The translations under genes were made by a program, and so were the position numbers. The notes beneath the pieces are model-generated. The model saw only the letters and a list, made by a program, of their open reading frames with translations. It did not search any database and was not told the origin of the DNA. This document shows positions 1,442-19,876 of a DNA stretch of 32,000 bases, in pieces. The first letter of the stretch is position 1. Every line of letters begins with the position of its first letter. The DNA comes from Lachnospiraceae bacterium (GTDB taxonomy: Bacteria; Bacillota; Clostridia; Lachnospirales; Lachnospiraceae): assembly GCA_036652735.1 (NCBI GenBank), contig JAVVVI010000001.1, positions 96,998 through 128,997 of the forward strand, given 5' to 3'.

Positions 1442-2293
1442 TTATTTGATACCATCTGGAAGCTGAATCTCACCCTGATAAACCTGTGTTGCAGTTCCGG
1501 TCATATAGACACAAGCTTTTTGTTGGTCCCATTCAATCTCCAGGCTGCCGCCATTTAATTCTACTGTAACTTTGTTTTCTGTAAGTCCATTACGAATTGC
1601 CGCAACTGCTACAGCACAGGCACCTGTTCCACATGCCATTGTCTCACCGCTGCCTCTTTCCCATACCCGCATACGAAGTGTAGCCGCGTCAATTCGATTC
1701 ACAATCTCTGTATTGATTCGATTTGGAAAACGGGGATGATGTTCAAACAATGGTCCAACCACTTCCAGGGGAACCTTTTTTATATCCTCTTCCATAAAAA
1801 CAACGCAATGAGGATTGCCCATGGATACACACGTTACCAGAATCTCATTCCCATCTACCAGAAGATTCTGCTTTACCACTTCTTCTGTATCTGAGAGAAC
1901 CGGAATCTCCTTCGCCGTAAAATTCGGAGTTCCCATATTAACGCGAACCGCCTGAACCTTCCCATTTTCTATCTTAAGAGATAACTCCTTAATTCCACCA
2001 AGTGTCTCTATTGTGAGTTCCTTTTTCTTCGTCATTCCCGCGTCGTATACATATTTTCCAACACAACGGATTCCATTACCACACATTTCACCTCTGGACC
2101 CGTCTGCATTATACATTTCCATTTCAAAATCAGCTATTTTCGATGGTTGAATCAAAATCAGGCCATCTGAACCAATCCCCTTGTGACGGTCGCTGACAAA
2201 CTTTGCAACCTCACCCGGATTCTCTACTGTCTCCGTAAAACAATTTACATATACATAATCATTCCCGATGCCGTGCATTTTTGTAAACTTCAT
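1442..2293 (-). CDS. dapF: Diaminopimelate epimerase
   Basis: MKFTKMHGIGNDYVYV start. Both catalytic Cys motifs are present (CGNGIRC and ACGTGAC). Length is 283 aa. GGAGGG SD upstream. Confidence 0.9.
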   Translation of the reverse strand: MKFTKMHGIGNDYVYVNCFTETVENPGEVAKFVSDRHKGIGSDGLILIQPSKIADFEMEMYNADGSRGEMCGNGIRCVGKYVYDAGMTKKKELTIETLGGIKELSLKIENGKVQAVRVNMGTPNFTAKEIPVLSDTEEVVKQNLLVDGNEILVTCVSMGNPHCVVFMEEDIKKVPLEVVGPLFEHHPRFPNRINTEIVNRIDAATLRMRVWERGSGETMACGTGACAVAVAAIRNGLTENKVTVELNGGSLEIEWDQQKACVYMTGTATQVYQGEIQLPDGIK

Positions 2294-9180: not shown

Positions 9181-11604
9181 ATGAAGATATGTATTGTTGG
9201 GGGTGTTGCCGGTGGTGCCAGTGCTGCAACACGATTGCGTCGTTTAGACGAAGATGCTGAGATTATTTTATTTGAAAAGGGGGAATTTATCTCCTATGCG
9301 AATTGCGGACTTCCATACTATATTGGTGGAATTATCAAAGAGGAAGAAACTCTGATTGTAACCAAACCAGAATTATTAAGAGAACGATTTTTAATTGACG
9401 TTCGTGTGAGGAATGAAGTAACTGCTATTAACAAAGAAGAGAAAAAAATCCAGGTTAAGAACCACGAAACCGGTGAACTCTATGAAGAATCTTACGACAA
9501 ACTTCTACTGTCCCCGGGTGCTGCTCCCAAAATCATGTTTCCTGAGGCGGCTGCCATTCCGGGCGTATTTACTTTACGAACGGTCCCTGACACGCTGAAG
9601 ATTCGCAGCTTTATTGATACCCAAAAGCCAAAAACTGCCGTTGTGATCGGCGGTGGATTTATTGGAATTGAAATGGCAGAGAATCTAACCGCTCAGGGCA
9701 TTGCCGTTACGGTTGTGGAATTTGCCCCTCATATCGTTGCCTCCATGGACCATGAACTGGCAAATATTCTTCATACTCATTTAGCTGAGAATGGAGTATC
9801 GCTTCTTTTAAAAACCGGTGTCACGAATATAAAACAAGAAGGAAGCAGCATCTGCTTATCTCTCACAAACGACACTTCCATCCATGCCGACCTGGTACTG
9901 ATGTCTGTTGGTGTCGCCCCTGAAAGCCGCCTTGCAAAAGAAACCGGCCTGTCTCTTGGCATGGGTAACAGCATTGCTGTTACAGACACTTTGCAAACCA
10001 GTGATCCCAATATTTACGCCGTTGGAGATGCCATTTCTATTGAACATGCCATTACCCATAAGGAAAGCCTGATTCCCCTTGCCGGTCCTGCAAATCGACA
10101 GGGCAGAATTGTTGCGGAAAATATCCTTGGTGCTTCTAAATCGGGAAATCTCACCTTAGGAAGTGCCGTATTAAAGGTCTTTGACTTAACGGCTGCTTCC
10201 ACCGGCTTAAGTGAAGCCCAGTGCCAAAAGATGAATATCGATTATAAAAAAACTTATGTACATCCCTTTTCCCACGCCAGCTATTATCCCGGTGCAACCC
10301 AGATTACCATGAAATTACTGTTTACCAATGATGGTTCCATTCTTGGTGCACAGGCTGTTGGTTACGAAGGTGTTGAGAAACATATCGATGTAATTGCCAG
10401 TGTTATCCACTTTAAAGGGACCGTAAAGGATTTAGAAGAACTGGAACTATGCTATGCTCCTCCATTTTCCTCCGCTAAGGATCCGGTAAATATGCTTGGT
10501 TTTACTGCTTCTAATATTTTAAATGGAAGTATGCCTGTCTTTTACGCTGAGGATCTGGAAACCCTTGACCTGAATAAAATTCAGTTGGTTGATGTCAGCA
10601 CACCCGATGAAGTTCTTATGGGTACTATTAAAAACAGTCGCAATATTCCCCTGGATACCCTTCGAAACCGTATGGCGGAACTGGATCCCTCAAAGCCGGT
10701 TTATCTCTTCTGCCGAATTGGTTTAAGAGGCTATATTGCGGCCAGAATCCTGTTGCAACATGGATATCAGGTCTTTAATCTCAGCGGTGGCTACAAAACT
10801 TATATGATGATTCAGAATAAAAAGACATCCTTTTTATCCAAAGAATGCAGTCATAAGGAACACTCGGAGCAGTCCTCCGGTACGCCTGCTGCTTCCATGG
10901 AAGTAAATGCCTGCGGGCTTCAATGCCCCGGTCCAATTATGAAGGTTGCAGATGGCATGAAGGAACTGAAAGATGGCGAACAATTGTTAATTCATGCCAC
11001 TGATCCTGCTTTTGCATCCGATATCAAGGTTTGGTGTGAACGAACGGGAAACCAATGCTTAACCATTACGTCTGAAAAAGGAATCTTTCACGTTACTTTG
11101 CAAAAAGGCACTTTAATTCCTGTCCCTTCTACCGGTAATGACAAAACAATGGTTATTTTCAGCAGTGACCTGGACAAAGCGATTGCTGCTTTTATCATTG
11201 CCAATGGTTCTGTTGCAATGGGACGGAAGGTAACTCTATTCTTTACCTTTTGGGGTCTAAACATACTACGCAAAAACTCCAAAGTAACTGTTTCAAAGAC
11301 CGTCGTTGAAAAAATGTTTGGTAAACTGATGCCTCGTGGAAGCAAAAAGCTGGGTCTGTCCCGAATGAATATGGGTGGAATGGGTGCCAAAATGATTCGC
11401 ACCATTATGAAAAAGAAACAGGTCTCTTCCCTGGAAGAGCTTATTCAATCCGCCATACAAAGCGGCGTACGAATTGTAGCCTGTGAAATGTCCATGGATT
11501 TAATGGGCATTCATCCGGAAGAATTAATTCCCGGCGTAGAACTAGGTGGCGTTGCAACCTTCCTTGGAAGCGCCGAAACATCGGATACAAATTTGTTCAT
11601 CTAA
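9181..11604 (+). CDS. Four-domain fusion: CoA-disulfide reductase / NADH-oxidase-type flavoprotein + rhodanese + TusA-like + DsrE-like domain
   Basis: The N-terminus carries GGVAGGASAA (FAD) and SYANCGLPYY, with the redox Cys at residue 42. The rhodanese loop is FCRIGLRG (Cys511, nt 10711-10713). The TusA-type motif is CGLQCPGP (Cys582, nt 10924-10926). A C-terminal domain of about 150 aa, KTMVIFSSDLDKAIAAFIIANG...VACEMSM (Cys768), is DsrE/DrsE-like. SD is AGAGGGAAAG. Confidence 0.85.
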   Translation: MKICIVGGVAGGASAATRLRRLDEDAEIILFEKGEFISYANCGLPYYIGGIIKEEETLIVTKPELLRERFLIDVRVRNEVTAINKEEKKIQVKNHETGELYEESYDKLLLSPGAAPKIMFPEAAAIPGVFTLRTVPDTLKIRSFIDTQKPKTAVVIGGGFIGIEMAENLTAQGIAVTVVEFAPHIVASMDHELANILHTHLAENGVSLLLKTGVTNIKQEGSSICLSLTNDTSIHADLVLMSVGVAPESRLAKETGLSLGMGNSIAVTDTLQTSDPNIYAVGDAISIEHAITHKESLIPLAGPANRQGRIVAENILGASKSGNLTLGSAVLKVFDLTAASTGLSEAQCQKMNIDYKKTYVHPFSHASYYPGATQITMKLLFTNDGSILGAQAVGYEGVEKHIDVIASVIHFKGTVKDLEELELCYAPPFSSAKDPVNMLGFTASNILNGSMPVFYAEDLETLDLNKIQLVDVSTPDEVLMGTIKNSRNIPLDTLRNRMAELDPSKPVYLFCRIGLRGYIAARILLQHGYQVFNLSGGYKTYMMIQNKKTSFLSKECSHKEHSEQSSGTPAASMEVNACGLQCPGPIMKVADGMKELKDGEQLLIHATDPAFASDIKVWCERTGNQCLTITSEKGIFHVTLQKGTLIPVPSTGNDKTMVIFSSDLDKAIAAFIIANGSVAMGRKVTLFFTFWGLNILRKNSKVTVSKTVVEKMFGKLMPRGSKKLGLSRMNMGGMGAKMIRTIMKKKQVSSLEELIQSAIQSGVRIVACEMSMDLMGIHPEELIPGVELGGVATFLGSAETSDTNLFI

Positions 11605-12957: not shown

Positions 12958-13692
12958 TTATTCTTTTCTATGTGTAAAATATCTGGCTGCTTCCTCTGCC
13001 TGGGCAGTCAGCATTTTAATACCACCAGAACATCGAATTCCCAGTTCTTCTGCCTGTGCTAAAAGCTTTGTTTTTTCCGGATTGTAGATTACATCAAAGA
13101 CCCCTTCGCAGTCCGGAAATTGCGTAAGATCTATGGGCCGTTGTTCTACGTTTGGATACATTCCAACCGGAGTTGTATTAATAATCACCTGAATCCTGTC
13201 CACTCTGTGTAAGTCAGCATAATTTACCCTTATGACCGGATTATTTTCCTGGAATTCCTGCTCCCTTCGGGAAGCAATTACAATTTTGGCTGCTCCCATC
13301 TGCTTCACAGCCCAGGTCACGGTCTTACTGGTTGCTCCATCTCCCAAAATAAGGACTGTTTTAGTTTCAACAACGATGCCTGCTTCTTTCATTGCGTAAC
13401 AAAATCCATAGTAATCTGTATTTGTTCCACAAAGTTTTCTCTGGGCATTAAAATATAAGGTATTTACAGCCCCTATTTGTTTTGCAATGGGTGCTAAATA
13501 GTCACAATAGGGCATTACGGTCTGTTTGTATGGAATGGTAACATTTAAACCCAGGAAATTTCTGGTCTCCAATAGTTCCACTAACTCTTCTTTGGAAACC
13601 GGATACAGTTCATATTGATAGAATCCCAGGCTCTCATGTATTTCCTTGGAATAACTATGGCCCAGTTTTTCCCCAACTAATCCATATTGCAT
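12958..13692 (-). CDS. aroE: Shikimate dehydrogenase (short form, 244 aa)
   Basis: LGHSYSKEIH, NVTIPYK and NTDYYG motifs are present. Its ATG overlaps the end of the chorismate mutase ORF by 16 nt. Confidence 0.85.
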   Translation of the reverse strand: MQYGLVGEKLGHSYSKEIHESLGFYQYELYPVSKEELVELLETRNFLGLNVTIPYKQTVMPYCDYLAPIAKQIGAVNTLYFNAQRKLCGTNTDYYGFCYAMKEAGIVVETKTVLILGDGATSKTVTWAVKQMGAAKIVIASRREQEFQENNPVIRVNYADLHRVDRIQVIINTTPVGMYPNVEQRPIDLTQFPDCEGVFDVIYNPEKTKLLAQAEELGIRCSGGIKMLTAQAEEAARYFTHRKE

Positions 13693-13964
13693 GATTCTTC
13701 TCCTTCTATCAACTCCCTTTGATACGCTCTGCTCACTTGAAACATGGTACCATATAGTGTTCGAATATAGGGCTCCATAAGTGGACCCACCTGTTCAGAC
13801 AGCTTTTGCAGAATTTCTTCCTCTCTTTGTGCATTTAAAACGATCGTTTTAGAAGCTTTCTTTTCTTCTGCTACCTGTTTGGATAACTTCATTCGTTGAA
13901 GGAATAAAGCAGCTATTTCCTCATCTATTTTATCGATTTCAATTCTTATGTTCTCTAATGACAT
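13677..13964 (-). CDS. Chorismate mutase, AroQ class (95 aa, stand-alone)
   Basis: MSLENIRIEIDKIDEEIAALFLQRMKLSKQVAEEKK is the typical AroQ helical N-terminus. AGGAG lies 6 nt upstream. It overlaps the aroC end by 26 nt and the aroE start by 16 nt. Confidence 0.8.
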   Translation of the reverse strand: MSLENIRIEIDKIDEEIAALFLQRMKLSKQVAEEKKASKTIVLNAQREEEILQKLSEQVGPLMEPYIRTLYGTMFQVSRAYQRELIEGEESCNMD

Positions 13965-15063
13965 CTTCTTCTCCTAATTCCAGCATGGTATCTAAAATAC
14001 CCAGTGCCATGGCGGCTTCCACTACTGGGACTGCCCGAACCACCACACAGGGATCATGTCTGCCAACAATACTCAGCTTCGTATTTTCTCCCCGGCTTAA
14101 AGATACCGAGTCCTGTTCCTTTGCTATGGATGGTGTGGGTTTCATTCCAAGACGGCAGATAATGGGCATTCCGGATGAAATTCCACCTAATATTCCTCCA
14201 TGGTGATTGGTTCTTGTTTTAACCTGATTTCCGTCCATATAAAATGCATCGTTATTCTCAGAACCTTTCCTGGCAGAAGAGGCAAATCCTGTGCCGAACT
14301 CAACTCCTTTTACTGCCGGAATCCCAAAGAAAATCGGAGACAAGATGCTTTCTAGTCCATCATACATAGGACCGCCAATTCCCGGTTTCACTCCAATTGC
14401 CACACACTCTATGATTCCGCCAATGGAATCTCCCTGTGACCGGACTTCGGTTATATACTTCCCCATCTCCGCTCCCTTTTCTTCATCCAGTACAGGAAAG
14501 GAACGTGTCTTCAAATCATTTAGTTGTGTCAAGTCTTCTATTCCCTCTGAGAATCCTCTGTCAAAAATAGAACCAATGGCATAAATATGTGCTCCAATAT
14601 GAATATTTTCTTTTTCCAATATTTGAAGTGCAATGGCCCCTGCAATACAAAGAGGTGCCGTCATTCTTCCTGAAAAAGGACCGCCGCCGCTGATATTCAC
14701 ACTGCCCTTATACTTTACCATTGCCGTATAATCTCCATGTCCGGGACGTGGAACATCACAAACAGATTCATAATCCTTGGAATGGATATTGGTATTTTTA
14801 ATTATAATGGTCAATGGTTCCTTTGTTGTTTTACCATCAATAAGACCACTTCGAACCAAAGGCAGGTCCGGTTCTTTTCGTGAGGTTGCATAAATACTGT
14901 TCCCGGGTGCTCTCCGATTTAGTAATTCCTGCATTTTATCAAAATCAATCCATTGTCCAATGGGCAGACCTGTAATCGTTACCCCTATTTCTTCTTCGTG
15001 AGAACCTCCAAATATGGTTACCTTTAAGTGTCTGCCAAAGGTAGAAGAACATTTAATACTCAT
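13939..15063 (-). CDS. aroC: Chorismate synthase
   Basis: GRHDPCVVVRAVPVVEA plus general AroC layout. I moved the start from the GTG at 15072 to the ATG at 15063, preceded by GGGAGGTG plus 6 nt. It overlaps the aroA end by 11 nt. Confidence 0.92.
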   Translation of the reverse strand: MSIKCSSTFGRHLKVTIFGGSHEEEIGVTITGLPIGQWIDFDKMQELLNRRAPGNSIYATSRKEPDLPLVRSGLIDGKTTKEPLTIIIKNTNIHSKDYESVCDVPRPGHGDYTAMVKYKGSVNISGGGPFSGRMTAPLCIAGAIALQILEKENIHIGAHIYAIGSIFDRGFSEGIEDLTQLNDLKTRSFPVLDEEKGAEMGKYITEVRSQGDSIGGIIECVAIGVKPGIGGPMYDGLESILSPIFFGIPAVKGVEFGTGFASSARKGSENNDAFYMDGNQVKTRTNHHGGILGGISSGMPIICRLGMKPTPSIAKEQDSVSLSRGENTKLSIVGRHDPCVVVRAVPVVEAAMALGILDTMLELGEEDVIREHKN

Positions 15064-16267
15064 ACCATTCACCTCCCAGTTGTTTATAATCCATAAAAAA
15101 ATCAGGATAAGATTTTGCCACAGCTTCTGCTCCTACAATGTATACCGGTTCCCTGCATAAACTTGATGCAATGGCTGCCGCCATTACAATCCGATGGTCA
15201 TTCTGACTACACACGGTTCCACCGGTCAGCCCACCCTTGCCATCTATGGTAAGGCCTTCCTGTTCTTCTATAATTCTTCCCCCAAGTGCTTCTATCATAT
15301 CATGAACTGCCACTAACCGGTCACTCTCTTTGATTCGAAGTCTTGCGGCATTGATAATCCTGGTTCTGCCTTTTCGGGATGCTGCCAGTACCGAAAGAAT
15401 CGGCACCAAATCCGGAATATCGGTTACATCTATCACCCAATCTTCCCGGCTGTGGTTCTCTTCTAATTCTTTTAACTCTTCAATGAGCCTAAGAATTGCC
15501 TTGTCCCCCTGCATGGACTGTACATTCAGATTCTTACAGTTAATCTGCTGCTCAGAACCGGTGATTTTTTCCGCTATCCTGTCTGCTGCAATCCAGAATG
15601 CACTGTTTGACCAATCCCCTTCTGCCTCCACCTCACCCGGCGACCGATAGCTCTGCCCACCCTTTATGATGAATGTATGAAACGGAGTTCTTTGCACTTC
15701 TATCTGAATTCCAAACTGCTGCAATACCTCCAGTGTTAGTTCCACATACCCGATGGATTCTAAATTGGATGTTAGTTCTATCCTGCTCTCCTGTTCCAAC
15801 AGAGGCAGTGCAAACAAAAGACCTGTTATATACTGAGAGCTTACATTTCCTGCCAAAGAAAATATTCCGCCCTGAAGTTTTCCCGACACACGAATAATCA
15901 GTCCTGCTTCCTGTGAAGTTTGAAAACTGCAGCCATGTGCCTCCATCTCCTCTTTTAAGGGTGACAAGGGACGTTGGGGAAGGCGTCCATTTCCATAAAA
16001 TTCCGCCTGTTCTGTCAAAGCCATTACAATGGGCAGAAAAAAACGCAGCGTCGATCCACTTTCTCCACATGGATAGTTCCCACTCCCATTTTTCAGGGCC
16101 CGAATGCAGTTCTCGGTTGCCTTTAAATCGTCATTCCAGTCATGGATGGTCACCCTGCATGGCTCCTTACATAACGCTGCTGCAATTAATAACCGGTGGG
16201 CGTGAGATTTTGATGTAATGGCATTCAAGCTTCCCTTTAAAGGTCCTGGTATTATTTTTATATTCAT
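15053..16267 (-). CDS. aroA: 3-phosphoshikimate 1-carboxyvinyltransferase (EPSP synthase)
   Basis: MNIKIIPGPLKGSLNAITSKSHAHRLLIAAAL start and DHRIVMAAAIA motif. I moved the start from 16309 to the ATG at 16267, preceded by GAGGAGGGG. Confidence 0.92.
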   Translation of the reverse strand: MNIKIIPGPLKGSLNAITSKSHAHRLLIAAALCKEPCRVTIHDWNDDLKATENCIRALKNGSGNYPCGESGSTLRFFLPIVMALTEQAEFYGNGRLPQRPLSPLKEEMEAHGCSFQTSQEAGLIIRVSGKLQGGIFSLAGNVSSQYITGLLFALPLLEQESRIELTSNLESIGYVELTLEVLQQFGIQIEVQRTPFHTFIIKGGQSYRSPGEVEAEGDWSNSAFWIAADRIAEKITGSEQQINCKNLNVQSMQGDKAILRLIEELKELEENHSREDWVIDVTDIPDLVPILSVLAASRKGRTRIINAARLRIKESDRLVAVHDMIEALGGRIIEEQEGLTIDGKGGLTGGTVCSQNDHRIVMAAAIASSLCREPVYIVGAEAVAKSYPDFFMDYKQLGGEWYEY

Positions 16268-16280
16268 AGAACCCCTCCTC

Positions 16281-17357
16281 TTAGAATGCATGTTCAATAA
16301 AATGTTCAAGCTCTGATATGGGTAGTTCCTTTAGATAACAGGCACCCATTTTCTTTGGTACTACAAGGGTAATCCTATCACCCTGTCTTTTTTTATCCTT
16401 CCATGCAACCTCTGCAAGCTGTTTGGATGAAAAGTTACACTCCAATGGAAACTTGAACTTTAACAAAATGCGCTTAAGGTCTTCGGAACAATCCTCTTGT
16501 GAATACCCCAATTGATACGATGCGCGGGAGACTATATACATTCCAATTGCAACTGCATGACCATGCGTCACTTGATAATTACTGCATTTTTCAATGGCAT
16601 GCCCTATTGTATGTCCAAAGTTCAATAGCTGGCGCTTGCCGGTATCCCTCTGGTCCAAACCAACAATCTCTGCCTTTATTGTAATACATCTTAAGACAAT
16701 TTTCTCTAAAATGTCTCCCTGGTGGGTTGTACCATATAACGCTTCCCCATACTGCTCCATTTGTTCCAATAGTTCCAGATCCTGAATGGCACCATACTTA
16801 ATCACTTCTGCTACTCCATCCAAAAAAATAGTATAAGGAAGTGTCTTCATGGTATCACAATCGCAAAGAACCAGAGACGGCTGCCAGAATGCTCCTGCCA
16901 GATTTTTCCCCCCTTCCAGATTCACACCTGTTTTTCCACCTACAGAGGAATCCACTGCTGCCAGAAACGTAGTTGGAATCTGTACATAAGGGATTCCTCT
17001 TAGGAAAATTGACGCTGCAAATCCTGCAATATCTCCTGCAATTCCACCACCCAATGCAACAATACTGTCACTTCTTGTAAAATTATGGTCCGCCATAAGT
17101 TCTAAAATGGCTTTTACTGTGTCGATTTTCTTTGCATTTTCCCCTTTTGGGAATACGTAGCTTATCGTTTGAAACCCTTCCTGTTCCAGTGATGCAACCA
17201 CTTGTGAGGCATAAAGCTTTTCTACTACCGAGTCGGTTACCAGACAGATTTTACCCGGTGAAAGAACTGTTTTTATATACTTCCCTGCTTCTTGAACAAT
17301 ACCTCGTTTTAAGATCACCTCATATTTTTTTCCCGTTGGAACCGTCACTTTTTCCAT
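16281..17357 (-). CDS. aroB: 3-dehydroquinate synthase
   Basis: GGGIAGDIAGFAA nucleotide-binding motif and metal-binding histidines in FGHTIGHAIE...HGHAVAIG. Its ATG overlaps the tyrA TAA by 1 nt (TAATG). Confidence 0.92.
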   Translation of the reverse strand: MEKVTVPTGKKYEVILKRGIVQEAGKYIKTVLSPGKICLVTDSVVEKLYASQVVASLEQEGFQTISYVFPKGENAKKIDTVKAILELMADHNFTRSDSIVALGGGIAGDIAGFAASIFLRGIPYVQIPTTFLAAVDSSVGGKTGVNLEGGKNLAGAFWQPSLVLCDCDTMKTLPYTIFLDGVAEVIKYGAIQDLELLEQMEQYGEALYGTTHQGDILEKIVLRCITIKAEIVGLDQRDTGKRQLLNFGHTIGHAIEKCSNYQVTHGHAVAIGMYIVSRASYQLGYSQEDCSEDLKRILLKFKFPLECNFSSKQLAEVAWKDKKRQGDRITLVVPKKMGACYLKELPISELEHFIEHAF

Positions 17358-18199
17358 TAAAATTTTTCTCCATCTATGGTCATTTTTCTTTCTTTACCTT
17401 CTCTTAAAAGCGTACAAAGTGTCTCTTTGTCCTGTGTCTGAATTGCTTGCTTATATTCTTCTAGATGTTGAATTAATTCCTCTATTTCTTCGGATAAGAA
17501 CTGTGGATTGCATAAGAATAACTCCGTCCACATATCTTCTTTTAATTTTGCAACACGAGTCATATCTTTATAACTTCCTGCGGAGAATCCCTGATGCTGC
17601 AATGCTGTCTCACTCTTTATATAGGCTCCTGAAACCACATGTGCCAGTTGAGAGGTGAACGCAATCATACGGTCATGTTCTTCCGGTGTTGTAATTACAA
17701 TATCCTGAAAACCAATGCTGAGAAATAATTGTTTCATTTGCTGAACGGCTTCAATCTGTGTTCCTTTTGCCGGTGTCAATATCATGGATGCATGCTGGAA
17801 TAATGCCTTCTTTGCATGATTGAATCCGGAATGTGCCGCTCCTGCCATAGGATGTCCGCCCATAAATAAAAATCCCTGTTCTTTTGCAATTGGCTCCAAT
17901 TCAGCGCAGATCACACGTTTCACTCCACAACAGTCCAGTACCACTCCGCCTTTTCTGATTTGCTCCCTGTGCTGTTTCACAAAATCAATGGTTGCCTGTG
18001 GATAGAGTGCAAGAATTAATAATTCACACTCCGGTAATTCTTCTGCCTTTAACTCCTCATCAATGGCTCCTGTTACAATCGCTTTTTTTACAATTGAATC
18101 TTCAATATCCAGTCCCAGAATTTGATGTTCGGTATTTTCCTTGAATGTTTTAGCCATGGAACCGCCAATCAGACCAAGTCCGATAATTCCTATCTTCAT
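17357..18199 (-). CDS. tyrA: Prephenate dehydrogenase
   Basis: MKIGIIGLGLIGGS Rossmann start and GGHPMAG motif. Its ATG abuts the aroF stop (TAAATG). Confidence 0.88.
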   Translation of the reverse strand: MKIGIIGLGLIGGSMAKTFKENTEHQILGLDIEDSIVKKAIVTGAIDEELKAEELPECELLILALYPQATIDFVKQHREQIRKGGVVLDCCGVKRVICAELEPIAKEQGFLFMGGHPMAGAAHSGFNHAKKALFQHASMILTPAKGTQIEAVQQMKQLFLSIGFQDIVITTPEEHDRMIAFTSQLAHVVSGAYIKSETALQHQGFSAGSYKDMTRVAKLKEDMWTELFLCNPQFLSEEIEELIQHLEEYKQAIQTQDKETLCTLLREGKERKMTIDGEKF

Positions 18200-19213
18200 T
18201 TATTTATCCCCCTTGTAACTAAATGGCAGAATTGCGTCAACCGCCTTTACCACATCCGAAAATGCTTCCGGTGTCAAGGACTGTGCTCCATCACACAATG
18301 CATGTGGGGGGTCATTATGCACTTCAATCATCAATCCATCTGCTCCACAAGCTGCTGCTGCCAGTGACATTGGCTTTACTAATTTTGCAATTCCGGTTGC
18401 ATGGCTTGGATCTACTATAATTGGAAGATGTGTCATTGATTTCAACAAAGGTATACTGGCTAAATCCAGTGTGTTTCTTGTTGCCGTCTCAAAGGTTCGG
18501 ATTCCTCTCTCACAAAGAATTACATTTTCATTTCCACCAGCCATAATATATTCTGCGCTCATTAAAAATTCCTGTAGGGTACTGGAAAGTCCCCTCTTTA
18601 AGAGAATTGGTTTTTTTAGGGTTCCCAGTTCCTTTAGTAACTCAAAGTTCTGCATATTTCTGGCTCCTACCTGAATCACATCAACCTCTTCGAACAATGG
18701 CAGATGTGAAAGGTCCATAATCTCCGTTACAATTGGTAAACCGGATACTTTTTTTGCCTCTAATAAAAGCTTGATTCCCTCTTCCCTCATACCCTGGAAT
18801 GCATATGGTGACGTACGCGGTTTAAAGGCTCCGCCTCTGCACAAAGAAGCTCCTGCCTCTTTTACCGCTACTGCAACCTGGCAGATTTGTTCTTTTGATT
18901 CAACAGAGCAGGGTCCTGCAATAATCTGAAAGGTTCCTCCCCCTATCTGAATGCCGCCCACATCTACTACGGTATCATCCGGGTGAAATTTTCTGTTTGC
19001 ATTTTTATATGGCTCTTGGATTCTTTTTACAGTATCTACAATATCCAGTGCGTTAATTAGTTCCATGTCTACTCCTGTGGTATCTCCAACTAATCCAATT
19101 AAGGTTGTGTGTTCCCCCTTACTCATATGAATTCCTAAATCCATACTTTTTAACCAGGATAATAAGTTGTCCAGTTGCTTTTGATCCGGATTGTTCTTTA
19201 AAATAATAACCAT
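18200..19213 (-). CDS. aroF: 3-deoxy-7-phosphoheptulonate (DAHP) synthase, type I-beta, with an extra N-terminal domain of about 70 aa
   Basis: The catalytic barrel includes GADGLMIEVHNDPPHALCDGAQSL. The N-terminal MVIILKNNPDQKQLDNLLSWLKSMDLGIHMSKGEHTTLIGLVGD resembles the ferredoxin-like regulatory domain of Thermotoga-type enzymes. I moved the start from 19270 to the ATG at 19213, preceded by AAGGAGGAG. Confidence 0.9.
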   Translation of the reverse strand: MVIILKNNPDQKQLDNLLSWLKSMDLGIHMSKGEHTTLIGLVGDTTGVDMELINALDIVDTVKRIQEPYKNANRKFHPDDTVVDVGGIQIGGGTFQIIAGPCSVESKEQICQVAVAVKEAGASLCRGGAFKPRTSPYAFQGMREEGIKLLLEAKKVSGLPIVTEIMDLSHLPLFEEVDVIQVGARNMQNFELLKELGTLKKPILLKRGLSSTLQEFLMSAEYIMAGGNENVILCERGIRTFETATRNTLDLASIPLLKSMTHLPIIVDPSHATGIAKLVKPMSLAAAACGADGLMIEVHNDPPHALCDGAQSLTPEAFSDVVKAVDAILPFSYKGDK

Positions 19214-19244
19214 TTTGTTCTCCTCCTTGGGTTTTCCTTTAATT

Positions 19245-19281
19245 ACAAAAAGTCCGTAGGTGAATTTCACCTGCGGACTCT
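19245..19281 (-). terminator. Intrinsic terminator (attenuator) 31 nt upstream of the aroF start
   Basis: In the minus-strand RNA, AGUCCGCAGGUGA (19279-19267) pairs with UCACCUACGGACU (19263-19251). That gives 12 bp plus one C/A mismatch around loop AAU, followed by UUUUGU (19250-19245). Confidence 0.7.
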
Positions 19282-19318
19282 AACGATTGTGCTTGTTATC
19301 TTTCATAAAGAGTATCCT

Positions 19319-19435
19319 TTATGAAGGGAGAGTATCCATATTTGCAGTGAAATCCAAAGAAGCCTTACTTCTATAATAATAGAATGTAAAGCTATAATAT
19401 AAATATTCTACTGCTGACTTCATTGTCTTATTCAT
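19319..19435 (-). CDS. Leader peptide of the aro operon (38 codons, Tyr/Phe-rich)
   Basis: AAGGAG (19448-19443), 7 nt, then ATG (19435). The translation is MNKTMKSAVEYLYYSFTFYYYRSKASLDFTANMDTLPS, ending at TAA (19321-19319). It contains six Tyr and three Phe codons, eight of them in codons 11-21. It is too short for the supplied ORF track. Confidence 0.6.
   Translation of the reverse strand: MNKTMKSAVEYLYYSFTFYYYRSKASLDFTANMDTLPS
19329..19355 (-). promoter_or_regulatory. Candidate antiterminator segment, complementary to the 5' arm and loop of the attenuator terminator
   Basis: GGAUUUCAC (19355-19347) pairs with GUGAAAUUC (19270-19262). UGC (19346-19344) pairs with GCA (19274-19272) if G19271 bulges out. 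ACUCU (19333-19329) pairs with AGAGU (19281-19277). The segment lies within codons 27-36 of the leader ORF. Confidence 0.45.
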
Positions 19436-19492
19436 AATCTCTCTCCTTAAGTAACTGCATCACTGCCTTATTATGACGGTAATAAAGCAATT

Positions 19493-19756
19493 TTATGCCA
19501 TTGCATTAACAGCTTTTGTTAAACGGGAAATCTTTCTTGCTGAAGTATTCTTGTGATAAACACCCTTTTTAGTTGCTTTGTCTATTTCAGAAGTAGCTAC
19601 AAGTAAAGCAGCTTTTGCTGTCTCAACTTCTTTTGCTACGATGGCAGCTTCAACTTTTTTAATTGATGTTTTTACTTTTGATTTGGTTGCTTTATTTCTT
19701 GCAGCCTTTTCATCATTTACTCTAATTCTCTTTTTTGCAGATTTTATGTTAGCCAA
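19493..19756 (-). CDS. rpsT: 30S ribosomal protein S20
   Basis: (M)ANIKSAKKRIRVNDEKAARNKATKSKV. I moved the start from 19819 to the TTG at 19756, preceded by GGAGGTG plus 6 nt. The product is 87 aa, the normal S20 size. Confidence 0.92.
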   Translation of the reverse strand: MANIKSAKKRIRVNDEKAARNKATKSKVKTSIKKVEAAIVAKEVETAKAALLVATSEIDKATKKGVYHKNTSARKISRLTKAVNAMA

Positions 19757-19847
19757 TCCGTACACCTCCATATGATAAAATATTAATTGTTCCTCAACTG
19801 TTACATTAAAGCCGGACACGGACGATCTAATGTAAACATACTATATC

Positions 19848-19876
19848 AGTTTATGCCATTGAGTTTCTCTTGTCAA
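19848..19876 (-). promoter_or_regulatory. Candidate sigma-A promoter for rpsT
   Basis: On the minus strand: perfect TTGACA (19876-19871), a 17-nt spacer, then TAAACT (19853-19848). This predicts a 5' UTR of about 85 nt. Confidence 0.55.

Follow-up and report, generated by a model that had tools for sequence, protein, structure and literature searches.

This report concerns a stretch of 32,000 nucleotides (nt) from a Lachnospiraceae bacterium (GenBank assembly GCA_036652735.1, contig JAVVVI010000001.1, positions 96,998 to 128,997), hereafter the window, which carries on its minus strand the operon aroF-tyrA-aroB-aroA-aroC and, between rpsT and aroF, an RNA element built around a short, Tyr-rich open reading frame (ORF). 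It is very probable, judging from the sequence and its relatives, that this element is a ribosome-mediated leader-peptide transcription attenuator which senses charged tRNA-Tyr and tRNA-Phe and controls the five genes downstream. The parts of a leader-peptide attenuator are found together here, namely an ORF with a ribosome-binding site, a cluster of cognate codons, an intrinsic terminator (segments 3 and 4 of the RNA, or 3:4), two mutually exclusive folds in which segment 2 pairs with either segment 1 (1:2) or segment 3 (2:3), and an apt placement of the codons with respect to these folds.

All six Tyr codons and two of the three Phe codons of the leader ORF lie between codons 11 and 21, and they match the regulated genes, since these are the genes of the shikimate pathway plus tyrA. 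The Tyr/Phe codons (19405-19373) begin within segment 1 and continue across the inner hairpin of the 1:2 fold, and the last Tyr codon lies 17 nt from the start of segment 2 at 19356. A ribosome with an assumed footprint of about 30 nt, if it were stalled on these codons, would cover segment 1 or the inner hairpin. An exact direct repeat, UAUUAUAG (Tyr-Tyr-Ser/Arg codons), at 19371-19378 and 19392-19399, 21 nt apart, flanks the 5' strand of the inner hairpin and suggests a small internal duplication of a Tyr-Tyr unit. An exact-protein look-up returned no protein record for the leader ORF (19435..19319), and on the nine NCBI contigs of metagenome-assembled genomes (MAGs) from the same species that it led to, the leader is identical and unannotated. 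As for aroF itself, the true start is ATG 19213, as homologues align from residue 1, the Pfam domain boundary agrees and the MAG annotation gives 337 amino acids (aa); the start at GTG 19270 offered for the DAHP synthase by a mechanical ORF list is an artefact that falls inside the terminator.

Table 1. Features of the attenuator locus and its operon, in window coordinates
Feature	Position	Strand	Basis or remark
rpsT	19819..19493	minus	upstream neighbour; 57-nt spacer to leader
Shine-Dalgarno sequence AAGGAG of leader ORF	19448-19443	minus	7 nt before AUG 19435; read from sequence
Leader ORF MNKTMKSAVEYLYYSFTFYYYRSKASLDFTANMDTLPS, 38 codons + UAA	19435..19319	minus	6 Tyr, 3 Phe
Full match to covariance model R1	19420..19242	minus	74 bits, E = 1.2e-13, model positions 1-155 of 155
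Segment 1, 5' strand of outer 1:2 helix, GCAGUAGAAUAUUUA	19414-19400	minus	minimum free energy (MFE) fold; family consensus GCAGCUGAAUA
Regulatory codon block Tyr11, Tyr13, Tyr14, Phe16, Phe18, Tyr19-21	19405..19373	minus	predicted stall sites; codon table
Inner hairpin of 1:2, AGCUUUAC...GUAAGGCU, extended by UUCUAU/AUAGAA	19361..19393	minus	MFE fold; codons 15-25
Segment 2 core UGGAUUUCACUGC	19344..19356	minus	alternative partners: segment 1 or segment 3
First GGAUACUCU copy, helix-B strand	19329..19337	minus	in constrained MFE fold; no comparative support
Hairpin around UAA, 9-10 base pairs (bp), UUCAUAAAG(G) / (U)CUUUAUGAA	19302..19325	minus	MFE fold; includes second GGAUACUCU copy
Segment 3 AGAGUCCGCAGGUGAAAUUC: terminator 5' arm, loop, first 2 nt of 3' arm	19262..19281	minus	partner of segment 2
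Intrinsic terminator (3:4), 13 bp, one C.A mismatch, loop AAU, then UUUUUGUAAUU	19241..19281	minus	RNAfold
GGAGGAG	between terminator and aroF ATG 19213	minus	read from sequence
DAHP synthase, aroF type, N-terminal ferredoxin-like domain	18200..19213	minus	Pfam DAHP_snth_FXD and DAHP_synth_1 from residue 1
tyrA	18199..17357	minus	Pfam match
aroB	17357..16281	minus	Pfam match
aroA	16309..15053	minus	Pfam match
aroC	15072..13939	minus	Pfam match

The leader RNA from 19480 to 19240 (241 nt) folds to a minimum free energy of -68.6 kcal/mol (z = -6.1), which none of 200 dinucleotide shuffles equals. In this fold GCAGUAGAA... pairs with ...UUCACUGC to give 1:2, and both the stop-codon hairpin and the terminator are formed as well. 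The 1:2 element is a bipartite hairpin of 71 nt, worth -24.0 kcal/mol alone, made up of an outer helix (19414-19400 with 19356-19344) and an inner helix (19393-19386 with 19368-19361). Segment 3 lies about 65 nt downstream of segment 2, and the pairing of the two consists of helix A plus UGC/GCA across a bulged G19271. An independent repeat search recovers helix A (19261-19270 with 19347-19356), the arms of the terminator (19251-19264 with 19266-19279) and the hairpin around the stop codon (19302-19310 with 19317-19325), as well as the 9-nt direct repeat discussed below. RNAfold assigns the terminator -18.9 to -19.3 kcal/mol; it is followed by UUUUUGU and stands 32 nt before the aroF AUG; a consensus terminator scan missed it, probably owing to the single C.A mismatch.

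An initial annotation, made from the letters of the window alone, had proposed the four-segment scheme, and the segments, coordinates and codon numbers that it quoted are all present on the minus strand. Its U-tailed terminator is borne out both by the RNAfold energy and by covariation at all 11 family pairs. Of the two upstream look-alikes of segment 3 that it had put forward as segment 1, GCAGUAGAA proves right, albeit as the 5' half of the larger 71-nt hairpin, while GCAGUGA in the 5' untranslated region is given up, for its 7-bp match in the window (p = 0.02) recurs at p<=0.05 in 3% of loci against 5% by chance. Helix B, which it had added as a second part of the 2:3 pairing, is at chance level (p = 0.36 in the window; 7% of family loci at p<=0.05). 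The hairpin it drew around the stop codon is present, but family support for it is weak, the spacer hairpin having a median z of -1.1, with 20% of loci at p<=0.05 (window z = -1.6). The 9-nt direct repeat that it reported, GGATACTCT (GGAUACUCU in the RNA), is exact and locally improbable: its copies at 19309-19317 and 19329-19337 flank the stop codon, 20 nt apart, and are the only two in the 32 kb against 0.13 expected. The copy at 19309-19317 supplies the loop of the stop-codon hairpin together with a portion of its 3' arm.

The effect of a stalled ribosome was modelled by removing the RNA upstream of 19362, as for a stall at Tyr19-21, and folding successive 3' ends. With the 3' end at 19262-19254, the MFE structure is the 2:3 antiterminator (-22.5 to -24.8 kcal/mol), comprising helix A, the UGC/GCA extension and helix B and enclosing the stop-codon hairpin. 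Addition of segment 4 tips the balance to the terminator fold (-29.5 to -31.7 kcal/mol), with a terminator pair probability of 0.9997. With no ribosome, 1:2 stays in place and segment 3 is left for segment 4. The antiterminator claimed in the initial annotation is hence the MFE structure when segment 1 is masked and segment 4 unmade, and its proposal that a ribosome on the Tyr codons would free segment 2 is supported, within this model, by the folding of the RNA downstream of the ribosome. Folding with the ribosome masked, which it had put forward as a check, gives the antiterminator as the MFE structure once only the downstream RNA is folded. An equilibrium fold with a masked 30-nt footprint still gave the terminator; there 1:2 closed around the ribosome, which is physically not sensible, and for this reason the downstream-RNA folding took its place. 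The 2:3 pairing, in short, is not far weaker than its rivals in the kinetic window, although it is so at equilibrium.

Two sets of related loci provide the comparative evidence. The genome set was built from relatives of the DAHP synthase, with one genome per species, and holds 80 loci at 63-79% identity, mostly from MAGs of Oscillospiraceae, Acutalibacteraceae, Christensenellaceae, Lachnospiraceae and Anaerovoracaceae, together with Angelakisella massiliensis and Oscillibacter valericigenes; the metagenome set holds 80 aroF loci of at most 74% identity. No relative closer than 79% aroF identity came from the genome scan, nor any above 74% from the metagenome scan, and an exact-protein look-up for closer ones returned the same species alone, with an identical leader. 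About 68 of the 80 genome loci have, ahead of aroF, a Tyr/Phe-rich ORF with a start codon (for example MNKFAFAAEYYFTFIFTFAYFSKGSLRLAAKGASC and MSTFTFAAEYRYFSFTYYFGKAYFGLAENECV), and in most cases a strong U-tailed hairpin follows 15-60 nt past its stop codon. The family leaders are 29% aromatic (407 Y, 488 F and 17 W among 3131 residues), with 5-16 aromatic codons per leader, and these codons keep to the reading frame (567 in frame as against 199 and 264 in the other two). With start codons chosen automatically, 44 of 63 family leaders carry a Shine-Dalgarno core of 4 nt or more, spaced from the AUG as in the window. A sigma-70-like promoter is found in 56 of 63 loci, typically 20-35 nt before the leader AUG, and the order aroF-tyrA-aroB-aroA is retained in most related loci.

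The fit between segment 2 and the terminator arm can be compared between loci without any alignment. The two fit better within a locus than across loci (mean -16.0 against -11.7 kcal/mol), none of 10,000 permutations does as well, and the advantage of the own locus also holds for the best ungapped helix. Compensatory sets are seen across loci in GAUUUCAC/GUGAAAU, GAUUUGUGC/GCACAAAUC, AAUACGGUUAUUUU/AAGAUGACCGUAUU and GUUUGGUGU/GACACCAAAC, and a GCAGUGAAA-type motif recurs among the family terminators. Short-form leaders of 14-23 codons, such as MKKVFNYYFYNFYFFRPY (loci L028, L032, L033, L035, L059, L073 and similar), stand somewhat apart: they are unmatched by the covariance model described below, yet in each the leader's own segment 2 is strongly complementary to its terminator (as in AAUACGGUUAUUUU with AAGAUGACCGUAUU). 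They seem to form a second subfamily that works on the same principle.

When 28 long-form leaders are aligned with MAFFT, blind to structure, the consensus is TTTGCAGCTGAATACTTTTACTTTAGCTTTACC...GGTAAGG.TT.TT...GTTT.GCTGCAAA...GCTCCGCAG..AA...CTGCGGGGCTTTTTT. From this alignment RNAalifold recovers the terminator alone, and for the remaining helices the pairs were set beforehand and then counted. Counted in this way, the off-state structure is 80.9% paired, as against 36-48% when slid along the alignment; the antiterminator is 82.6% paired, as against 32-47% slid, with a covariation score that no shuffle attains; and the terminator is 91% paired, with compensatory changes in 9 of 11 pairs. The covariance model R1 was built from 27 of the leaders with the window sequence excluded and with the off-state structure only. 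It finds the element of the window over its full length (Table 1), with no further significant match in the 32 kb, and it matches 50 of the 80 genome loci and 46 of the 80 metagenome loci (about 96 of 160), just upstream of aroF and on the strand of the gene, three weak minus-strand matches excepted. The R1 alignments take no account of 2:3 in their fitting; on them, pairing of the antiterminator reaches 78.6% and 83.9%, as against 27-52% slid, and none of 500 shuffles attains its covariation score.

In one such alignment, A3, the off state is 84.8% paired with compensatory changes in 26 of 30 pairs. Taken helix by helix, the outer 1:2 helix is 70-75% paired in the family (compensatory changes in 9 of 10 pairs in A3), the inner hairpin 79-81% (6 of 9) and the terminator 91-96% (11 of 11). 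Covariation in homologous leaders, which the initial annotation had asked to see, is thereby provided by pair counts for the terminator, the 1:2 hairpin and helix A; the last of these is kept, and shows compensatory changes, in each of two independent homologue sets. Sequence and computation show the parts, their exclusive pairings, their conservation and covariation, and the match of codons to pathway.

Moreover, the variants of the inner stem tie the codon to the structure, since CUAUUACU/AGUAAUAG carries Tyr UAU where CUUUUACU/AGUAAAAG carries Phe UUU. A change from UAU to UUU, that is from Tyr to Phe, is matched by a change from A to U in the partner strand, which argues that the amino acid sensed co-evolves with the structure. 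Two types of inner hairpin are seen in A3 (in loci L050, L060, L046 and L072, among others), namely AGCUUUAC/GUAAGGCU and CU(A/U)UUACU/AGUAA(U/A)AG, and the compensated UAU-to-UUU change is seen in the second of them. The Tyr share of the aromatic codons, Y/(Y+F), has a median of 0.44 in leaders of aroF-tyrA loci and 0.27 in those of aroF-aroB loci (Mann-Whitney p = 0.049, n = 62 against 9, uncorrected for phylogeny), a weak hint that the codon content of the leader tracks the content of the operon.

The following course of events is what we infer for stalling, timing and read-through. When Tyr and Phe are plentiful, the ribosome would run to the UAA and 1:2 would form or re-form; segment 3 would then pair with segment 4, and the polymerase would stop at about 19245-19250. 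The same outcome, termination, would be expected of an untranslated leader. When charged tRNA-Tyr or tRNA-Phe is scarce, the ribosome would stall on codons 11-21 and cover segment 1 or the inner hairpin, such that segment 2 would be free as segment 3 emerges; helix A would form first and block nucleation of the terminator, and the antiterminated polymerase would read into aroF. The choice between the folds would be a kinetic one, the terminator being the more stable at equilibrium.

The role of the ribosome at the stop codon deserves separate mention. The stop codon of the window lies 23 nt downstream of segment 2, which means that a terminating ribosome would cover about 19339-19307, a range that takes in helix B and the stop-codon hairpin and not the core of helix A. 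The initial annotation had placed this ribosome on the helix-B half of segment 2, allowing the terminator to form; the helix-B strand would indeed be covered, but the helix-A core at 19356-19344 would not, and in the family the position of the stop codon varies: 28% of leaders have it upstream of segment 2, another 28% have it 1-15 nt past that segment, and in 42% it lies further downstream, beyond 15 nt. As the core is left uncovered, replete termination more likely relies on 1:2 re-forming behind the ribosome. What the family appears to conserve, from the comparison of leaders, is the breaking of 1:2 by a ribosome on the aromatic codons, and not the covering of segment 2 by a ribosome at the stop codon.

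Several points weigh against the attenuator as described. The antiterminator duplex, at -12 kcal/mol, is weaker than the terminator at -19 kcal/mol, and as the terminator beats 2:3 at equilibrium (P = 0.9997), antitermination has to be kinetic; the scheme would accordingly need kinetic trapping and a suitable timing of transcription and translation. The antiterminator of the Escherichia coli trp leader, a classical attenuator, likewise loses to its terminator at equilibrium. In the window alone, the 2:3 complementarity is unexceptional (p about 0.2-0.3; best ungapped helix p = 0.19, RNAduplex z = -0.5), and because such single-locus statistics are not significant, the case for 2:3 rests on the family comparison. 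There, the compensatory signal of helix A is modest (21-26 double-change cells against about 10 expected), and much of its percent-paired signal stems from sequence conservation. Further, the logic of the replete state would depend on 1:2 refolding, given that a ribosome at the UAA would leave the core of segment 2 uncovered. Finally, a sigma-70 scan of the stretch that separates rpsT from the leader in the window recognises no promoter, and in this most family members differ. The sole good promoter in the consensus scan is that of rpsT (19876..19848), an extra site inside the Tyr codons being likely spurious, and the consensus terminator scan finds nothing between the end of rpsT and the leader. 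In this genome the terminator of the attenuator probably doubles as that of rpsT, and the aro operon is probably read through from rpsT.

This arrangement could also be taken to mean that the hairpin is simply the constitutive terminator of rpsT, with the Tyr-rich ORF and the 2:3 match arising by chance in an AT-rich spacer. In keeping with this, rpsT ends 57 nt before the leader with neither terminator nor clear promoter between, and the 2:3 match in the window by itself is not significant. However, the same element stands upstream of aroF in about 96 related loci and is found in the window at E = 1e-13 by a model built without it, whereas rpsT lies within 3 kb upstream in none of 62 tested loci, most of which have a promoter of their own; and covariation accompanies the conservation of ORF, 1:2 hairpin and antiterminator alike. 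A plain rpsT terminator with chance features beside it is, in our estimate, extremely unlikely. A reading that would keep the switch but take it out of the hands of the ribosome has a trans-acting factor, either a protein of the TRAP/PyrR type or an uncharged tRNA, bind UACUUUAGCUUUAC / GGUAAGGCU, with the ORF incidental. The primary sequence of 1:2 is unusually conserved over several families of Clostridia, and Ser in the conserved block is nearly always encoded by AGC rather than UCN, which points to selection on the RNA sequence and not on the peptide. Yet the inner and outer helices, with their compensatory changes, account for the nucleotides that are conserved, while a properly spaced Shine-Dalgarno sequence and AUG, the kept frame and the two- to three-fold excess of aromatic codons in that frame indicate translation. 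Rfam gives no match to the T-box or to any other known protein- or tRNA-binding leader, and the short-form members, for all their divergence in sequence, retain an aromatic ORF and a segment 2 complementary to their own terminator. We regard control by such a factor as very unlikely.

It may also be asked whether the peptide itself is the effector, either as a TnaC-like arrest peptide that senses free aromatic amino acids or as a small peptide acting in trans. The leaders share a loose peptide pattern, FAAEY-F-F-SF...GKA...FAA, and some of these ORFs are annotated as genes in public records. Against this, conservation tracks the RNA helices and not the residues, the choice of codons is fixed, and swaps of Tyr to Phe are compensated in the partner strand. 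The length (14 to more than 40 residues) and the C-terminus vary freely, the stop codon can lie as much as 30 nt before or after segment 2, and no Pfam or NCBIfam family matches the six peptides compared, the sole name attached to such ORFs being 'hypothetical protein'. An effector peptide thus appears slightly less likely again than a trans-acting factor. Overall, the ribosome-mediated attenuator sensing charged tRNA-Tyr and tRNA-Phe is the reading that we prefer.

Some observations stand beside this account. At least eight of the 80 aroF loci (L009, L022, L024, L034, L053, L054, L068 and L076) have no aromatic upstream ORF, and these eight have no T-box or other Rfam element at the gathering threshold either; several MAGs among them are labelled Spirochaetia, Planctomycetaceae or Bacteroidaceae. 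At locus L011, a cobalamin riboswitch (RF00174, 32.6 bits; 1968-2104, minus strand) lies about 650 nt upstream of the aroF leader on the opposite strand. In the window, an ORF of 244 aa at 12958-13939 resembles shikimate dehydrogenase, with a match to the N-terminal substrate-binding domain only and a gap of about 250 nt to aroC; it could be truncated, divergent or separately transcribed. Further along, an 807-aa fusion protein encoded at 9181-11604 on the plus strand joins a pyridine nucleotide-disulphide oxidoreductase to rhodanese, TusA and DsrE-like domains.

Whether the element is the first to be recognised from a large family of Tyr/Phe attenuators that no catalogue lists, placed on the shikimate operon across much of the Clostridia and with codons that coevolve with a hairpin, is to our mind an evenly balanced question. 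Such a family may extend over Oscillospiraceae, Acutalibacteraceae, Christensenellaceae, Lachnospiraceae and Anaerovoracaceae and include the gut genera Faecalibacterium, Ruminococcus and Oscillibacter. If so, translation-coupled control of transcription would be routine in Clostridia and not a rarity beside T-boxes. The element is itself a candidate regulator for the making of aromatic amino acids, carried by many Clostridia of the gut and rumen. While the mechanism would not surprise specialists, the breadth of an uncatalogued family in Clostridia merits reporting, as does what it implies for the coupling of transcription and translation in that class. Leader-peptide attenuation requires the ribosome to keep pace with RNA polymerase. 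In Bacillus subtilis, transcription is reported to be largely uncoupled or "runaway", whereas data on Clostridioides difficile argue otherwise for that species (PMC7858274, PMC8237595). A widespread ribosome-sensing attenuator in Clostridia would thus be independent genomic evidence on coupling and would also offer a natural reporter. Moreover, the tie between Tyr/Phe codon identity and hairpin covariation makes a clean case of overlapping coding and structural constraints, and model R1 could be used to annotate such leaders in metagenomes.

Existing catalogues do not hold the element. The whole window has no match of this kind in Rfam at the gathering threshold, nor a relevant one at E<=10 in 19100-19600, and the same holds for 20 related loci, where nothing relevant was found. 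The T-box (RF00230) is matched neither in the window, at the gathering threshold or at E<=10, nor in the 20 related loci, and the Rfam leaders for Phe, Trp, His, Leu, Thr and leu/phe have no match in 19100-19600 at E<=10. Pfam and NCBIfam assign no family to six leader peptides, and those leader peptides that have been called as genes are named only 'hypothetical protein'. In full-text searches of the literature, no account came up of Tyr/Phe leaders preceding aroF in Clostridia. The element is therefore absent from Rfam 15, Pfam and NCBIfam, whereas the mechanism itself is that of trpL, pheL and hisL.

Among known systems, the leader-peptide attenuators of enteric bacteria (background in PMC9413887 and PMC11802643), namely trpL, pheL/pheA, pheM/pheST and hisL, share with the element a short leader with clustered codons for the end product, four segments that pair as 1:2, 2:3 or 3:4 to the exclusion of one another, and a U-tailed 3:4 terminator. 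Their logic is also the one proposed for it: in them a stalled ribosome frees segment 2, an untranslated leader terminates by default, and the antiterminator, weaker than the terminator, acts under kinetic control. In contrast to them, the element has no sequence or Rfam relationship to those leaders (no leader family matching at E<=10), its host is a Gram-positive spore-former of the Clostridia, Tyr and Phe would be sensed together in control of tyrA and the common shikimate pathway, an inner hairpin nested in 1:2 has the regulatory codons as its strands, and the position of the stop codon with respect to segment 2 is unconserved.

Within the Firmicutes, T-box leaders of aromatic genes occupy the same 5' position with a terminator and an antiterminator and respond to the same signal, the charging of tRNA; they sense the uncharged tRNA directly and need no translation, whereas a conserved aromatic ORF is found here instead. 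Attenuators with His leaders have been predicted in Firmicutes upstream of hisS/hisZ in the B. cereus group and of the his operons of C. difficile and other Peptostreptococcaceae (PMC2965389, PMC9413887). Like the present element, these are amino-acid leader-peptide attenuators that replace T-boxes in some Firmicutes, including Clostridia; they differ in amino acid and operons, are confined to few species and are unrelated in sequence.

The nearest published motif is uORFC-13-1 of a Firmicutes-related lineage (Brewer et al., 2021; PMC8632094), a candidate upstream ORF reported from Acholeplasma and environmental sequences (24 representatives) and lying solely upstream of aroF. It is described as having a promoter, a ribosome-binding site, a start codon, U-rich Phe codons, an adjacent intrinsic terminator and an additional base-paired substructure, and its proposed role is Phe-dependent attenuation. 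The motif is not in Rfam 15. Set against the published verbal description, the element agrees in its position next to aroF, ribosome-binding site, start codon, Phe codons and adjacent terminator, whereas the description mentions neither an antiterminator model nor Tyr codons.

The closest functional analogue, as far as the summary in PMC11802643 allows it to be compared, is aroR of Corynebacterium glutamicum, a leader with the residues Phe-Tyr-Phe upstream of the operon of the aroF DAHP synthase (Neshat et al., 2014), in which stalling of the ribosome at the Phe/Tyr codons raises transcription, reportedly in response to limitation for Phe and not for Tyr. By that description, the regulated function and the amino acids are the same as those proposed here; aroR is actinobacterial, with three regulatory residues as against 5-16 aromatic codons in the present family, and the leader of the window is dominated by Tyr.

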